DNA of 64,000 nt from Candidatus Omnitrophota bacterium (GTDB lineage Bacteria; Omnitrophota; Gorgyraeia; Zapsychrales; Zapsychraceae). Shown here piece after piece: positions 5,141 to 38,571 of this stretch. Location of the stretch: positions 133-64,132 of the forward strand of contig JAIORP010000030.1 of assembly GCA_021108075.1 (NCBI GenBank). The letters run 5' to 3'. The notes beneath the pieces are model-generated. The model did not search any database and was not told the DNA's origin. It worked only from the letters and a program-made list of their open reading frames with translations. Position numbers and translations under genes: made by a program. Every line of letters begins with the position of its first letter. The stretch's first letter is position 1.

Positions 5141-6288
5141 ATAAAAAGATAAAGAAAATAAAAGGAAATGTTACTGCTCCGTTAGGGTTTAAGGCTAAGG
5201 GGTTATGGTGCGGCTTGAAGCGTTCCAATCCTGATATCGCCCTCATTATGAGTGATGCTCCGGCATCTGCCGCAGGAGTTTTTACAAAGAACTCGATAAA
5301 AGCTGCGCCTTTGATCGTGAGCCAAAGACATTTAAGAAACGGCAAAGCGCGTGCTATTGTCGTCAATAGTGGTAACGCGAATTGTTTCACGGGAAGTTTC
5401 GGTCTGGTCTATGCCAACCAGACAGCGGAAATTTTCAGTCAACTGTTAGGCGTCAATAAATCAGACGTGATTGTCGCATCAACGGGCATCATTGGCAAAC
5501 CTTTGCCATTTGAGAAAATAAAGAAATCAGCGCCGCAACTTGTATCAAAACTGACAACAGCCCAAAAGAATACCGTCTCGGAAGCCATTTTAACGACGGA
5601 TAAAAAAACGAAAGAGAGCGCTGTTGAAATTGTGTTGGGTCATAAAAAGGTTACGATTGGTGCCTGTGCCAAAGGCTCTGGCATGGTTGCCCCTGATATG
5701 GCAACCATGTTGTGTTTTATCACAACAGATGCCGCTATTGAACCGGCATTACTTAAATCAGCCTTGTCGAAGGCGATTGAACTGTCGTTTAACTGCATTA
5801 CCATTGATGGTTGTATGAGTACCAATGACATGGTTGTTATCTTGGCGAATGGGCAGGCTCAAAATAAGACCATTAAGGCGAAGGATAAGGATTATGCATT
5901 GTTCACCGCCGCAGTGACGTCTATTTGTGAAGATTTAGCGAAAATGATTGTTATGGATGGTGAGGGCGCGACAAAATTGATCCAGATCAACATTCGCGGG
6001 GCAGGAACGAAACAGCAGGCCCAGAAATTAGGATTAGCCGTCGCTAATTCGAATCTGGTTAAAACGGCCGCTTTTGGCAACAATTCCAATTGGGGCCGTG
6101 TTGCTGCAGCCATAGGTTCACTGGGGATAAAGAGAATCAATGACTCAAATTTAAAAATTAGTTTTAGTCCATTTCACAAGAAAGAAATTATCATAACTGT
6201 TGACGTTCAATTGGGTGATGCCCAGGCTGTTGTCTACACGTCCGACCTTTCGTATGAGTATGTGCGGATTAATGTCGAATACAATTAA
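5137..6288 (+). CDS. argJ: Bifunctional glutamate N-acetyltransferase / ornithine acetyltransferase
   Basis: It has the ArgJ autoprocessing site ATMLCFITTDA and a GFKAKGL N-terminus. Its start overlaps the argC stop. Confidence 0.85.
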   Translation: MNKKIKKIKGNVTAPLGFKAKGLWCGLKRSNPDIALIMSDAPASAAGVFTKNSIKAAPLIVSQRHLRNGKARAIVVNSGNANCFTGSFGLVYANQTAEIFSQLLGVNKSDVIVASTGIIGKPLPFEKIKKSAPQLVSKLTTAQKNTVSEAILTTDKKTKESAVEIVLGHKKVTIGACAKGSGMVAPDMATMLCFITTDAAIEPALLKSALSKAIELSFNCITIDGCMSTNDMVVILANGQAQNKTIKAKDKDYALFTAAVTSICEDLAKMIVMDGEGATKLIQINIRGAGTKQQAQKLGLAVANSNLVKTAAFGNNSNWGRVAAAIGSLGIKRINDSNLKISFSPFHKKEIIITVDVQLGDAQAVVYTSDLSYEYVRINVEYN

Positions 6289-7182: not shown

Positions 7183-8402
7183 TGAAAAAAGACGACATCA
7201 TAAAAGATTATCAAGAGTATATTTTATCGACGTATACGCGTACTCCGGCGGTATTTGTAAAGGGCAAAGGCATGCAATTAACCGATATCCACGATAAGAA
7301 ATATTTGGATTTTTTTCCTGGCTGGGGTGTGAATAATGTTGGTCATTGTCATCCTAAGGTCATGTCTGCTGTGCGTGATCAAGTTAATAAGTTGATTCAC
7401 ATCCCTAACAATTTTTACCACCCGCAACAGGTCAAGCTTGCCAGGGAGATCATTTATCAGTCTTTTCCAGGGAAATTGTTTTTTTGTAATAGCGGGGCGG
7501 AAGGATGTGAATCCGCTATTAAATTTGCGCGGGCTTACGGGCGAGGGCAGAGATATGAAATTATCTCGATGAATAAATCTTTCCATGGACGCACATTGGG
7601 CGCATTATCGGCAACAGGTCAGGCCCAATATCAGGAAGGTTTTCATCCATTGCCGGAAGGTTTTAAGACGGTCGATTTTAATGATATTGGTGCGGTCAAG
7701 AAGGCGTTGACTGAAAAGACCGTGGCGATTATGTTGGAACTTGTTCAGGGAGAAGGTGGGATTCATATCGCAACCAGAGATTATGTCGATTCTTTGAGGG
7801 CTTTATGCGATGAGAAAGATTTACTTTTGATCTTTGATGAAGTGCAGACAGGCATGGGACGTACAGGAGAAATGTTCGCGTATAAACATTATTCTGTGAT
7901 ACCTGATGTGATGGTTTTAGCCAAGGCCTTGGGCGGTGGTTTGCCGATCGGGGCCATTGTTGTCAAGAAAGATAAGGCTGATGTTTTTAAGCCCGGGATG
8001 CACGCTTCGACGTTTGGTGGCAGCCCATTGGTCTGCAAGGCAGCTTTAGGCGTGTTTAAAGCGATTCAGTCCGACAAGATGTTGGTAAATTGTCAGAAGA
8101 TGGGACTGTATATTATAGAACAGGTTGAAGGGCTGAAGAATCAAATTGATTGCATTAAGGATGTGAGAGGATTAGGATTGATGATTGGAATTGAGTTGAA
8201 TATCCCGGGCGCAGAAATCGTCGAGGAGTGTTTTCGTTTGGGTCTCATCATCAATTGCACGCAAGGTCATATTCTGCGTTTTATGCCGGCGTTGAACGTC
8301 ACTCAGAAACAAGTCGATAAAGCGATAAATATATTGAAAAAATCGATGACAACTGTGGCGGGTCGTAAAATAATAAATAGCGTTGAACTAGAAGAGGGTT
8401 GA
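7183..8402 (+). CDS. argD: Acetylornithine aminotransferase (class III PLP aminotransferase)
   Basis: It has class III aminotransferase motifs (GHCHP, the PLP lysine in FDEVQTGMGRTG..., and the region LAKALGGGLPIGA). The start is placed at MKKDDII; the upstream ORF extension overlaps argB. Confidence 0.85.
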
Positions 8403-32603: not shown

Positions 32604-34343
32604 ATGGCCCGATTAAAACTAGGTGAGATTTTAATCAATCAAGGTTTAATTTCTCAAGAGCAATTGCAAAAGGCAATTGATACTCAGAAGAGAGAGAAAC
32701 GCGGCCGGATTGGAGAAGTTTTAATGAAGCTTGGAATCATCACCGAAGAGTCCATGAATTCGGCGTTGGCATCCCAGTTGGGCATTCCGTATTATTCTTC
32801 GGATAATACGGATCTTCTCAAACCTCGCGAAGACCAGGGATTAGAGTCCATCCTGGACGGTGATTTTGCCAGAAAAAATTTGGTCCTACCCCTTTCCAAA
32901 CATATGAATTCGTTAACCTGTGCGGTCAATGATCCCCTTGATTTGCTTTTGCTAGACAATTTAAGGCGAATTGCGGGCTGTGAGGTCAATATCGTTTTGA
33001 CCACGAAGAATGCTTTGCAAAAAGCGATTGCGGATTTTTATTATTCTGATAAAGGTGATGGGAAATCGAGCATGCTTAATCAGGCCGTTGAAAAATCTTA
33101 TTCATCAAATCAATCCAGTTCCTTTGTGACATCCGGGCAGAAAGAATCGGCTTCGGCTGAATTAAGTTTAGACAAACTGATCGAGAAGGCCGGTGAGGCC
33201 CCTGTCGTAAAATTGGTCGATCTGATCATCCGTCAGGCGATTGATGAGCGGGCGAGTGATATTCATATTGAGCCCTATAACAGTAAAATCAATTTACGAT
33301 ACCGGATTGATGGCAAGTTGTATAATATCCCACCGCCTGCGCCACATTTGCATTTACCGATTGTTTCACGTATTAAGATTTTATCCAAACTGGATATCGC
33401 TGAAAAACGTTTGCCTCAAGATGGCGCGATTTCTGCCAAGCTGGAAGACAGGACGGTTGATATTCGTATCTCAACAGTTCCAACGGTCTGGGGTGAGAAA
33501 GTTGTTATGCGTATTCTCGATAAAGGGGCTGTTCCTCTGGAACTCGCCAGCTTGGGATTTTCCCCTAAGCAGATTGATATGCTGCGCAACGCGTTAAGCT
33601 CGCCTTACGGCCTGTTTTTTGTTACCGGACCGACAGGAAGTGGTAAGTCAACAACACTCTATGCGGCCTTAAACGAGACAATTGACCCATCAAAAAATGT
33701 TATGACCGCGGAAGATCCGGTCGAATATAAGATCGACGGGATTAATCAGGTCGCCATTCGAACCGAAATCGGATTGACTTTTGCGATAGCACTAAAAGCG
33801 TTCCTACGTCAAGATCCGGATGTCATTATGGTCGGGGAGGTCCGTGATATTGAAACAGCGTCTATCTGTGTCCGCGCCGCTTTGACGGGTCACTTTGTCT
33901 TGAGTACGTTGCATACGAATGATGCCGCATCAGCAATAACTCGTTTGATTGATATTGGCGTGCCGCATTATTTGTTAACGCCATCTTTGATCATGATTTT
34001 AGGGCAACGGTTATGTCGTCGATTGTGTTCAAAGTGTAAGGAACCTTATGAGCCCACACCAGACCAACACGCCGGGAATAAATTTACCAGTGATTTAATT
34101 TACAGGGGCAAAGGTTGTGAAGACTGCAACAGCACCGGCTATAAAGGCCGTCTTGTTATATCAGAGGTCCTGGCTATCGATGATTCGATTCGAGCGGCGG
34201 TTTCAAATGGAGCAACATGGGCTGAATTAAAAGAATTAGCCCGTAAGAATGGGATGGATACGATTTTTGAATCAGGACTCCGTTTAATTGAACAGGGTTT
34301 AACAAGCTACGATGAGGTTTGTCGAGTGACAATGGAATATTAA
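32604..34343 (+). CDS. Type IV pilus / T2SS assembly ATPase (PilB/GspE/MshE family)
   Basis: It has Walker A GPTGSGKSTT and a tetracysteine zinc motif (CSKCK...CEDCNSTGYKGR). Its N-terminal domain carries two tandem MshEN-type motifs. Confidence 0.9.
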   Translation: MARLKLGEILINQGLISQEQLQKAIDTQKREKRGRIGEVLMKLGIITEESMNSALASQLGIPYYSSDNTDLLKPREDQGLESILDGDFARKNLVLPLSKHMNSLTCAVNDPLDLLLLDNLRRIAGCEVNIVLTTKNALQKAIADFYYSDKGDGKSSMLNQAVEKSYSSNQSSSFVTSGQKESASAELSLDKLIEKAGEAPVVKLVDLIIRQAIDERASDIHIEPYNSKINLRYRIDGKLYNIPPPAPHLHLPIVSRIKILSKLDIAEKRLPQDGAISAKLEDRTVDIRISTVPTVWGEKVVMRILDKGAVPLELASLGFSPKQIDMLRNALSSPYGLFFVTGPTGSGKSTTLYAALNETIDPSKNVMTAEDPVEYKIDGINQVAIRTEIGLTFAIALKAFLRQDPDVIMVGEVRDIETASICVRAALTGHFVLSTLHTNDAASAITRLIDIGVPHYLLTPSLIMILGQRLCRRLCSKCKEPYEPTPDQHAGNKFTSDLIYRGKGCEDCNSTGYKGRLVISEVLAIDDSIRAAVSNGATWAELKELARKNGMDTIFESGLRLIEQGLTSYDEVCRVTMEY

Positions 34344-34365: not shown

Positions 34366-35604
34366 TTGCCAAAATATTCATATATCGTTAAAAATAAGGC
34401 CGGTGTTGAAGAAAAAAATGTTGTGGATGCCGTTAGCCAACAATCTCTTATAGAGAAGTTGCAACGCGAAGGTTACTTTATTGTTCGCGTGTTAGAAATC
34501 AAAACGACGTCCCATTTAAAGAAGAAAACATCCAAAAAAAACGAAAAGAGAAAATTTAGTCGTAAAAAAACTAAGTTGGAGGATCTTTTATCTTTTTCCC
34601 GTCAGTTAGCAACGATGTTAGAAGCGGGGGTTTCACTGATCCGCAGCCTTGATGTCATCCTGATTCAGGTGCAGAGTGAAGAGCTATACAATATATTAAA
34701 AGCCTGCAAGAAAGATGTCGAACAGGGTATCGCGTTAAGTGTTTCTTTGTCCAAGTATCCGAACGTCTTTAACCAGTTTTGGGTCAGCCTTATTGAAGTG
34801 GGTGAGGCTTCGGGTACTGTCCCTGTCGTTTTAAACAAACTTTCTTTTTATTTAGAACAACAGGCTGAATTCCGGGCGACCATTATTTCGGGCCTCATTT
34901 ATCCCGCTATTTTATTTATGGTCGCTGTTGGGGCTATTGCATTTTTTGCCCTGTTTGTGGGTCCGCGTTTTCAGTCGATTTTTGATTCAATGAACGTGGA
35001 TTTACCGATGATTACGGTTGTTTTATTGGCATCCTTTTCTTTTCTTAAAAAGAACATATTTTTGATTATCGCCGGAATCGTCGCGGGTGTATTCTTTTTA
35101 AAAAAATATATCAAAACATATCAAGGTAAATTACTTTTTGAAAAAGCTATGTTCAATATGCCTGTTTTTGGTGAGGTGTACCGTTTAATTATTGTTGAAC
35201 GCTTTACATCTCAGATGTCCATCTTGATTGATGCCGGTGTACCCATTTTATACGCCTTGGATATATCCGAACGTTTAGTCGATAATAATTCTTGTGCCAT
35301 GATTATCAGCACAATTAAAGAAGGCGTCCGCGAAGGGGAATTATTGGTCGCGCCCATGACGCGCAGTGGTTTCTTTCCAGCTATGTGTTTGCAGATGATT
35401 ATGGTCGGGGAAGAAACAGGTGAATTGAGTAAAATGTTGAAACACGTGTCAGCTTATTATCAAGATCTGGTTTCAACTTTTATGAAAAGGTTTGCGACGA
35501 TTGTTGAGCCATTTATGTTGGTTTTTATGGGGGGTGTCATCGGAACCATTGTTCTGGCCATGTTTTTACCAATGTTTAATATCGCACAACTAGGGGGAGG
35601 TTGA
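34366..35604 (+). CDS. Type IV pilus inner-membrane platform protein (PilC/GspF family)
   Basis: It has two GspF repeats and about 412 aa of polytopic membrane sequence. Confidence 0.85.
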   Translation: MPKYSYIVKNKAGVEEKNVVDAVSQQSLIEKLQREGYFIVRVLEIKTTSHLKKKTSKKNEKRKFSRKKTKLEDLLSFSRQLATMLEAGVSLIRSLDVILIQVQSEELYNILKACKKDVEQGIALSVSLSKYPNVFNQFWVSLIEVGEASGTVPVVLNKLSFYLEQQAEFRATIISGLIYPAILFMVAVGAIAFFALFVGPRFQSIFDSMNVDLPMITVVLLASFSFLKKNIFLIIAGIVAGVFFLKKYIKTYQGKLLFEKAMFNMPVFGEVYRLIIVERFTSQMSILIDAGVPILYALDISERLVDNNSCAMIISTIKEGVREGELLVAPMTRSGFFPAMCLQMIMVGEETGELSKMLKHVSAYYQDLVSTFMKRFATIVEPFMLVFMGGVIGTIVLAMFLPMFNIAQLGGG

Positions 35605-35741
35605 TAATATATAAGAAGCTTCAGAATATGTTTATAAATATTAGTTATACGCATTAAAAAAAATAAGTTTTATCTATCTATTCAATAGAAAATCGGTTAA
35701 ATTATAAATGTAAAAAAAATGAAAAAATTTATCCGCTCTCT

Positions 35742-35770
35742 TTGACAACTATCGATTTATATGGTATACA
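35742..35770 (+). promoter_or_regulatory. Sigma70 promoter, TTGACA-17-TATACA
   Basis: TTGACA at 35742-35747 and TATACA at 35765-35770, about 290 nt upstream of the major pilin gene. Confidence 0.5.
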
Positions 35771-35940
35771 TTTCTTAGAAACATGTTGAGCTTTATTGTT
35801 AAATGTAAACTACTCGTAAGGGTACGACACAAAACTATAGGGCCCTGGAAGTGCGGTATTTGAGCACTTTAATTTATAGATGAAGGAATAAAACGACATC
35901 TGCAGGGGTAGCCAGTTGCCAATAAAAAAGGTTGTGTATA

Positions 35941-35974
35941 CCTATTCTACGATAGCTAGAATAGGTTTTTTTTT
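35941..35974 (+). terminator. Intrinsic terminator or attenuator inside the pilin leader region
   Basis: The stem is CCTATTCTA / TAGAATAGG (9 bp perfect) with loop CGATAGC, followed by T9. Confidence 0.6.
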
Positions 35975-36058
35975 GAGGCTTCTTGGAGAAAGGGAAATTA
36001 GAAAAAATAGAACAATAATGTCAGGAAAATCAAAAAGGAAAGTAAGTAAAAAAGGAGC

Positions 36059-36481
36059 TTGAACATGAATTTAAATAACAAAAGTGGTTTTACATTACTC
36101 GAAATTATCATTGTCATCATCATCGTTGGTGTACTCGCCAGTTTAGCATTACCTCGATTTTTCAGCACCGTGGAATTCTCCAGAAGTACAGAAGCTCTTT
36201 CAGCATCAAGTTCAATCCGTCAATCATTAGAGCGATGTTATTTAGGGAATAATGGGAATTATGTCGGCTGTACGCTAGCCGCGATTGACTTAGCTGATCC
36301 CGGCGGATCACCAGGTGCTCATTTCGCGTATGCTATTGCTGGTCAAAGCGCCACAGGATACACAATCACAGCGACAAGAAACGCTATTAATGGCGGTGAC
36401 GGCACATCAGCAATCACCCTCACTCAATCTGCTGCGGGTGTTGCAAGAGCGGGTACAGGCGTTTTCGTTGGCATTAAATAA
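36059..36481 (+). CDS. Type IV pilin (probable major pilin)
   Basis: It has the class III signal ...KSG/FTLLEIIIVIIIVGVLASLALP. AAGGAG sits 6 nt upstream. A long hairpin follows it. An alternative start at 36065 is possible. Confidence 0.85.
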   Translation: MNMNLNNKSGFTLLEIIIVIIIVGVLASLALPRFFSTVEFSRSTEALSASSSIRQSLERCYLGNNGNYVGCTLAAIDLADPGGSPGAHFAYAIAGQSATGYTITATRNAINGGDGTSAITLTQSAAGVARAGTGVFVGIK

Positions 36482-36510: not shown

Positions 36511-36565
36511 CCTAAATAGCGACATCGAAGTTTTATTCATTAAGACTTCGATGTCGCTATTTAGG
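36511..36565 (+). promoter_or_regulatory. Perfect 21-bp inverted repeat (hairpin) between the major and downstream pilin genes
   Basis: CCTAAATAGCGACATCGAAGT-(13-nt loop)-ACTTCGATGTCGCTATTTAGG. There is no U-tract. Confidence 0.6.
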
Positions 36566-38367: not shown

Positions 38368-38471
38368 TGATTTGTATATTTATTCTGTCTCTCCCCAAAT
38401 ATATGGAAATGCTTGTCATAAATCTTGTGTTTTGATAATATGAAATCTCCAAAATGAAATTTATATTAATT

Positions 38472-38544
38472 GGGTCGGTAGCTCAATTGGGAGAGCACAT
38501 GGTTCGCAATCATGAGGTTGGGGGTTCGATCCCCCTCCGATCCA
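38472..38544 (+). tRNA. tRNA-Ala (anticodon CGC)
   Basis: It folds into a cloverleaf by hand. The acceptor stem GGGTCGG/CCGATCC has the G3:U70 Ala identity pair. The D-loop is AATTGGGA and the anticodon loop is TTCGCAA. The T-loop is TTCGATC and the discriminator is A73. CCA is not encoded. A TTGTCA-17-TAATAT promoter lies upstream. Confidence 0.8.
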
Positions 38545-38571
38545 TTCTTAATAATTTTTTTTAATTTGTAT

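Follow-up and report, generated by a model that had tools for sequence, protein, structure and literature searches.

A predicted class I cyclic di-GMP riboswitch in the major pilin leader of a Candidatus Omnitrophota bacterium

The DNA analysed here is a stretch of 64,000 nucleotides from a Candidatus Omnitrophota bacterium (contig JAIORP010000030.1, positions 133 to 64,132). It is called the window below, and all coordinates refer to it unless another contig is named. Its forward strand carries a type IV pilus cluster in the order secretin, pilB (T2SSE and MshEN domains), pilC (T2SSF), a gap of 460 nt, the major prepilin gene, more pilin-like genes and tRNA-Ala. The gap runs from the pilC stop at 35604 to the prepilin ATG at 36065. 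It holds a promoter, a candidate riboswitch for cyclic di-GMP (c-di-GMP) and an intrinsic terminator, which together are the subject of this work (Table 1). An AAGGAG site lies at 36052-36057, ahead of the pilin ATG and 78 nt past the T-run of the terminator. The host assignment agrees with the protein data: every close relative of PilC comes from an Omnitrophota metagenome-assembled genome (MAG), and an NCBI Omnitrophica MAG carries the exact PilC protein. A Logan assembly (run SRR32473237) holds the identical contig. The Omnitrophota are uncultivated, mostly ultra-small bacteria.

Table 1. Features of the pilin leader and of the two pilus genes discussed. P, helix; J, joining strand; positions 20, 47 and 92 follow the numbering of the Vc2 aptamer.
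Feature	Position	Strand	Basis or remark
Sigma-70-type promoter: -35 TTGACA 35742-35747, 17-nt spacer, TGn 35762-35764 (extended -10), -10 TATACA 35765-35770	35742..35770	+	sequence, conservation
c-di-GMP-I (GEMM-I) type aptamer, predicted	35792..35926	+	Rfam RF03167, model R1, covariation
P1	35792-35798 with 35920-35926 (7 bp)	+	
J1/2, UUAAAU	35799-35804	+	
Position 20	U35804	+	G 27/30, A 1 (L082), C 1 (L005), U 1 (window)
P2	35805-35806 with 35829-35830; 35810-35815 with 35820-35825	+	
P2 tetraloop, GUAA	35816-35819	+	
J2/3	begins at A35831	+	
Position 47	A35831	+	A 30/30
P3	35833-35845 with 35906-35917	+	
P3-tip insertion, about 60 nt, branched, two hairpins	35846-35905	+	insert in RF03167 alignment, predicted folds
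J3/1	G35918, C35919	+	
Position 92	C35919	+	C 25/30, U 5/30
Proposed antiterminator, aptamer strand: C35815 (end of P2 5' strand), tetraloop, P2 3' strand, J2/3	35815..35832	+	duplex energy, nascent minimum-free-energy fold
Proposed antiterminator, downstream strand: UUGUGU toehold 35932-35937, UACCU 35939-43, UACG 35948-51	35932..35951	+	mostly within terminator 5' arm
Intrinsic terminator: stem 35940-35949 with 35957-35966 (10 bp), 7-nt loop 35950-35956, T9 35966-35974	35940..35974	+	sequence, conservation
PilB/MshE-type assembly ATPase, same pilus system	32604..34343	+	Pfam T2SSE, MshEN
Major type IV prepilin (MNLNNKSG/FTLLE...), putative regulated gene	36065..36481	+	Pfam N_methyl, ComP_DUS

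An earlier note on this DNA, made by eye, had described a near-consensus promoter and a strong terminator inside the leader. The promoter is present as described, is conserved in relatives and predicts a transcription start near A35777. A promoter scan did not list it because the scan demands a T at the sixth position of the -10 hexamer. Of the 23 leaders examined, 21 have as their top-scoring candidate the pattern TTGACA-17-TATAC followed by A, C or T, with an upstream TGn, and its distance from P1 is constant. Within the window this promoter alone matches the pattern exactly. We also considered TGnTATAC...TAGA as a general promoter motif of the window and rejected it, as it is not common to the window promoters. 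The terminator hairpin and its T9 run likewise exist, with a stem (arms ACCUAUUCUA / UAGAAUAGGU; hairpin energy -11.4 kcal/mol) that is one pair longer than the 9 bp first counted. It is kept in 28/28 leaders of the main family described below. When two outliers are included in the alignment, 96% of the cells of its helix are paired and 7 of its 10 pairs show changes on both sides. As lone consensus matches the promoter and terminator are not beyond chance; the window holds 7 terminator-like sites where 2.9 are expected. They are significant because they are conserved across homologous leaders.

These homologs came from an nhmmer search with the window leader, which found a homologous leader directly 3' of pilC in 21 Omnitrophota loci. 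Sixteen of the loci were scanned with Rfam at the gathering score and 15 passed, 13 as RF01051 (42-64 bits; cut-off 35) and 2 as RF03167 (about 60 bits). A covariance model of the whole leader, R1, spans P1 through the T-run. It matched the window over the entire model at 104 bits (E-value 5e-23) and retrieved 23 further leaders, including a divergent one from Omnitrophota (L019) and one from Atribacterota (L041). Six more were added, namely one metagenome hit and the leaders of the five nearest PilC relatives (69-71% PilC identity); a search for relatives nearer to the window gave no PilC with more than 71% identity. The final alignment contains 30 leaders, the window and 29 further contigs. 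Of its cells in P1, P2, P3 and the terminator, 93.6% are paired, and in 24 of 36 pairs both partners have changed (81 cells). This was reached in 0 out of 500 shuffles, and slid controls gave 35-47%. A near-identical pilin N-terminus follows 80-350 nt past the terminator in 22 of the 22 leaders examined. The earlier note held that lack of conservation in related genomes would speak against a regulatory leader; the leader is conserved there. Because 15 of the 16 homologous loci scanned pass Rfam, R1 matches the window and the fold covaries, comparative sequence analysis places the leader in the GEMM-I structural class.

The window copy is recognised by Rfam at a permissive threshold. A scan of 35550-36150, of the kind proposed in the earlier note, gave a match to the c-di-GMP-I clan, CL00126. 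The best member was RF03167, which covered 35795-35924 over the full model length at 35.2 bits (cut-off 59; E-value 1.5e-6). In this alignment the tip of P3 holds about 55 extra nt. The insertion is the main reason for the low score, and a few substitutions add to it. All window pairs assigned to P1, P2, P3 and the terminator are standard except one in P2. The GUAA tetraloop follows the pattern G(U/C/A)(A/G)A found in almost all leaders (L014 has AUAA and L023 has GUUAA). The conserved internal loops of P3, AUA at 35837-39 and AG at 35910-11, could act as its receptor. Minimum free energy (MFE) folding of the window leader by itself did not reproduce the GEMM fold, so comparative data were required. 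The suspicion that a c-di-GMP riboswitch sits here is therefore borne out to the extent that a GEMM-I aptamer lies between promoter and terminator, below the Rfam threshold in the window and above it in nearly all of the relatives scanned.

In Vc2, G20 makes a Hoogsteen contact with G-alpha of the ligand and C92 forms a Watson-Crick pair with G-beta (PMC6140456). A47 intercalates between the two ligand bases and is more strongly conserved than G20 or C92 (PMC9049102). The pilin leaders follow this pattern (Table 1), and both base-reading positions vary naturally inside one orthologous leader family. U92 is found in L008, L027, L085, L086 and L087 (alignment A6, column 325). Among the 30 leaders U20 occurs in the window alone; its five nearest relatives all have G20. 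We scanned metagenomes for non-G20 variants and obtained one locus, L082. Sequences like the window or like L005 were not recovered, so the scanned collection is without them. The substitution at position 20 lowers our confidence in the ligand and not in the fold. The fold, together with A47, C92 and the MshEN domain of PilB, indicates that the ligand is most likely c-di-GMP. The window copy probably binds it more weakly than typical members do. Wild-type Vc2 binds c-di-GMP with a dissociation constant of 0.011 nM (quoted in PMC9049102). The G20A mutant still binds it at 53 nM and also accepts cyclic GMP-AMP (cGAMP) (PMC6140456). A weakened but working c-di-GMP sensor is thus the simplest reading. 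A literature search, which did not reach several primary papers, found no measured affinity for G20U or G20C.

Uracil pairs with the Hoogsteen face of adenine in standard nucleic-acid chemistry. The U20 aptamer might accordingly sense 3',3'-cGAMP or another A-containing cyclic dinucleotide, with U20 reading the adenine and C92 pairing with the guanine. We regard such a change of specificity as quite unlikely. It draws on the fact that position 20 sets the choice at the alpha site, as the response of GEMM-I to G20A demonstrates (PMC6140456), and on the variation of the family at both positions (A20 in L082, C20 in L005, U92 in five leaders). The other conserved positions of the aptamer and platform are intact by eye, save U20 and a C·C mismatch in P2, which argues for continued selection. 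However, the change is seen in one sequence only, amid G20 neighbours. Where a purine gives way to the shorter pyrimidine, the pocket geometry may prevent the contact. This organism has no known cGAMP synthase, and the picomolar affinity of GEMM-I leaves room for a simple loss of strength.

The 5' arm of the terminator, CCUAUUCUAC, is nearly invariant across the family, usually with UGUG just ahead, and this is unusual for a plain terminator. The arm is complementary to the tetraloop and P2 3' strand, GUAAGGGUAGG, and UGUG is complementary to CACA, a segment with A47 that spans the P2a 3' strand and J2/3. Across the family the downstream strand reads UGUGnCCUAUUCUAC. When the arm pairs with P2, neither P2 nor the terminator can form, which makes this helix a candidate antiterminator. 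In the window the predicted helix takes a shifted register, in which 35815-18 pair with 35948-51, 35820-24 with 35939-43 and 35827-32 with 35932-37 (-14.2 kcal/mol). For the nascent transcript 35777-35953 the antiterminator is the MFE structure, at -40.4 kcal/mol versus -31.0 kcal/mol for the aptamer fold. In the full-length transcript the terminator state wins. Folding thus predicts mutually exclusive terminator and antiterminator structures that overlap the aptamer, which are the alternatives that the earlier note had proposed looking for.

Column covariation of the antiterminator is weak, so we used energetics and accessibility instead. The duplex has a mean energy of -13.5 kcal/mol versus -7.1 kcal/mol with shuffled arms and -5.9 kcal/mol for the P2 hairpin. 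It is the MFE structure in 10 of 22 leaders when transcripts are ended before the terminator 3' arm. When the aptamer is imposed on the fold, the nucleation site of the arm becomes more accessible, its unpaired probability going from 0.15 to 0.47; a rise is seen in 22 of 24 leaders. The core is about 90% paired and shows compatible one-sided changes (G·U to A-U). A test of 14 pairs, which included the four UGUG:CACA pairs, found both-sided changes in 5 cells only. Covariation is scarce because both strands are near invariant and the UGUG register shifts between leaders. The outlier L019 has an unrelated terminator. Its 5' arm region is complementary to the P1 5' strand, again a strand of the aptamer.

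Taken together, the leader is probably a class I c-di-GMP riboswitch of the OFF type that controls transcription of the major pilin gene through the intrinsic terminator. We infer the OFF direction from the predicted structures. Transcription would start near 35777, and 35792-35926 fold into the three-helix aptamer. With no ligand, the sequence immediately 5' of the terminator and inside its 5' arm (UUGUGU...UACCU...UACG in the window, UGUGnCCUAUUCUAC in relatives) would pair with J2/3 and then invade P2. The invading strand would pair with the P2 3' strand and the tetraloop, the 5' arm of the terminator would be sequestered, and the polymerase would read into the pilin gene. Ligand bound at the P1/P2/P3 junction would lock J2/3 and P2. 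The 5' arm would then be free, the terminator would form and a transcript of about 198 nt would be released. The suggestion of a conditional terminator governing pilin read-through is supported by the GEMM-I aptamer and the predicted alternatives, and the other option raised at the outset, a stand-alone small RNA (sRNA), gained no specific support.

The same riboswitch might work in the ON direction. A (G/U)UAGAA motif at the start site could pair with UUCUA(C) in the arm and form an outer helix round the aptamer. A ligand-stabilised P1 would bring these partners together, and ligand would favour antitermination and pilin read-through, fitting a role of c-di-GMP in promoting pili. We consider this unlikely. 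The motif does lie 6-10 nt past the -10 box in most leaders (35776-35780 in the window; also L003, L004, L005, L006, L008, L014 and others), and UAGAA is absent at two other window promoters. The complementarity is longer in L003 (GUAGAAUAG), L004 (GUGGAAUAG), L024 (GAGUAGG) and L012 (UUAGGAU, with the arm variant UCUAG), reaching 7-10 nt in some relatives. If transcription starts at the G, the arm-leader pairing probability exceeds 0.5 in 12 of 22 leaders. The predicted activation of PilB by c-di-GMP also speaks for this direction. Precedents exist as well, namely the class I ON switch Bc2 and the ON switch of C. difficile pilA1 (PMC6366702). The distance of UAGAA is fixed to the -10 box and not to P1, however, and this suggests a start-site role. 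The usual start, 7 nt past the -10 box, would leave AGAA (4 nt) alone in the RNA. In the window the core is 5 bp, and the 3' arm could still use the unpaired CC(UA) of the 5' arm as a toehold. Formation of the outer helix would not depend on the ligand state and would reach across internal loops of 10-60 nt, and the UGUG:CACA pairing and the arm-P2 complementarity would be unexplained. We rank the ON direction below the OFF direction because the distance of UAGAA is fixed to the promoter and little of the motif is likely to be in the RNA.

A last alternative is that the riboswitch is decaying. The ligand would no longer be bound, and the leader would act as a constitutive attenuator or give a terminated RNA of about 198 nt, possibly an sRNA. 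The score below Rfam gathering, a U20 unique among the 30 leaders and the P2 C·C mismatch could all be read in this way, and C. difficile has class I copies that do not function (PMC6366702). We nevertheless hold decay to be very unlikely. All but one of the assigned pairs are standard, A47 and C92 are kept, and so are the promoter and terminator. The strong register-shifted antiterminator is kept via changes specific to the lineage, namely a toehold of 6 bp and a linker with UAUA. Moreover, a dead aptamer with the antiterminator as MFE structure would just read through, and a dead antiterminator would silence the major pilin.

Several observations weigh against an OFF riboswitch for c-di-GMP in the window. 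At the gathering score, Rfam reports tRNA-Ala only and no aptamer in the whole window, and the aptamer falls under every Rfam gathering score. Position 20 is U where GEMM-I calls for G. Upper P2 has the C·C mismatch at its base (35810 with 35825), where relatives have C-G. In the canonical register the accessibility of the arm in the window does not differ between the two states (0.50 versus 0.48). The predicted antiterminator is supported by conservation and energetics and not by covariation. The complementarity of UAGAA in the leader to UUCUA in the arm is conserved and could support the opposite logic. An OFF switch for pilin is also counter-intuitive beside a PilB activated by c-di-GMP. 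Finally, a crude motif scan of the 64-kb window found no GGDEF, EAL or HD-GYP protein. The scan gave no PilZ protein either, and its outcome has little bearing on the genome.

The assembly ATPase provides a further connection to the messenger. The N-terminus of PilB contains two near-consensus 24-residue MshEN motifs at residues 5-28 and 35-58, separated by a 6-residue spacer (window 32616-32777). Compared by eye, these motifs, KLGEILINQGLISQEQLQKAIDTQ and RIGEVLMKLGIITEESMNSALASQ, agree with the published c-di-GMP-binding consensus (as quoted in PMC11731258). The pilus motor and the pilin mRNA may thus both sense one messenger.

Other features of the locus and of its relatives were recorded. 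A perfect 21-bp inverted repeat, CCTAAATAGCGACATCGAAGT ... ACTTCGATGTCGCTATTTAGG, lies at 36511-36565, 30 nt past the major pilin stop. It lacks a T-run and may form a hairpin that stabilises or attenuates the transcript between the major and minor pilin genes. The tRNA-Ala(CGC) gene is at 38471-38545, immediately 3' of the pilin gene cluster. L003, L005, L006, L012 and L024 have a tRNA gene at the equivalent site, about 2.5-3 kb 3' of the riboswitch. The motif ATAGAACAATAATG at 36007-36020 had been proposed as a core shared with intergenic repeats. This idea was not sustained, as no other copy exists at up to 2 mismatches, and the 9 matches at 3 mismatches compare with 11.7 expected by chance. 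Within it, AACAAUAA was considered as a strand that re-pairs with the P1 5' strand and was rejected, since no equivalent was seen by eye in the spacers of the homologs.

Among the homologs, L041 of the Atribacterota has a GEMM-I aptamer at 7380-7535 (49 bits, R1) upstream of a type IV pilin gene at 7757-8188. A second candidate phylum thus also has a class I c-di-GMP aptamer ahead of a pilin gene. In L027 (about 5470-5545) an insertion of about 70 nt in the P2 internal-loop region splits the GAC/AC segment of an otherwise typical aptamer. The leaders with long spacers, L007 (about 5380-5460), L014, L003, L006 and L032, carry a second conserved block, GAAATATCGAAAnCTGGTTCGG...ATACG...AGAGT..CGGGA..GATAC..GCGACTT, between the terminator and the pilin ATG. 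L008, L017 and L015 have another block in common, GAAATCTCGCGATATATAGCGGATGC, downstream of the terminator. The window lacks both blocks, and Rfam at the gathering score matches neither.

A cyclic-dinucleotide riboswitch ahead of the major pilin gene, conserved in the sampled members of the phylum, would be a concrete regulatory link. The link extends to the assembly ATPase of the same operon through its MshEN domain, which is predicted to bind c-di-GMP. If the OFF direction is true, a high level of c-di-GMP would halt the synthesis of new pilin and at the same time activate the ATPase; control split in this way is unusual. The natural variants (G, A, C and U at position 20; C and U at position 92) are usable for studying specificity and affinity tuning in GEMM-I. 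Were the specificity altered after all, pilin expression in Omnitrophota would be tied to a messenger other than c-di-GMP, and the pilin leaders, with their C20, A20 and U92 relatives, would make up a series of specificity variants provided by nature. The riboswitch classes as now known are unaffected by these findings.

A literature search found no paper on Omnitrophota riboswitches. The element is of a known kind, a GEMM-I riboswitch with a terminator before a pilin gene. Its host phylum is new, and position 20 and the P2-strand antiterminator are atypical. In riboswitch platforms the usual partner of the antiterminator is the P1 3' strand, whereas the antiterminator proposed here uses the P2 3' strand and J2/3. 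With RF01051, which includes V. cholerae Vc2 and C. difficile Cd1 upstream of flgB, the leader shares the P1-P2-P3 junction, the GNRA tetraloop on P2, the AAA/GAC internal loop of P2, the invariant A47 and the junction C at position 92. The window copy differs from RF01051 in its U20 in place of G, a U-A in place of C-G as the P2a pair, the C·C mismatch in P2 and the 60-nt branched insertion at the tip of P3. RF03167 (c-di-GMP-I-GGC) is the best Rfam family for the window and for its homologs L015 and L009 (about 60 bits), although the 35.2 bits of the window are far under the gathering score of 59. Its consensus has a G after P2, where all 30 leaders have A47. The GGC in the family name stands for three contact positions, and the UAU of another family name is read likewise.

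The Geobacter GEMM-Ib riboswitches for 3',3'-cGAMP share the GEMM-I fold and carry A in place of G at position 20, which sets the choice of ligand (PMC6140456), and the relative L082 also has A20. The window differs from them in having U and not A, and there is no evidence of cGAMP signalling in this organism. The downstream intrinsic terminator and the proposed OFF logic resemble Cd1; all seven functional class I switches of C. difficile are OFF terminators, and the direction of a switch cannot be carried over between species (PMC6366702). A parallel in gene context is C. difficile Cdi-2-4 upstream of pilA1, where the leader of the major type IV pilin gene likewise combines a c-di-GMP riboswitch and a terminator (PMC6366702). 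Cdi-2-4 has a class II fold and is an ON switch, whereas the present leader belongs to class I and is predicted to be OFF.

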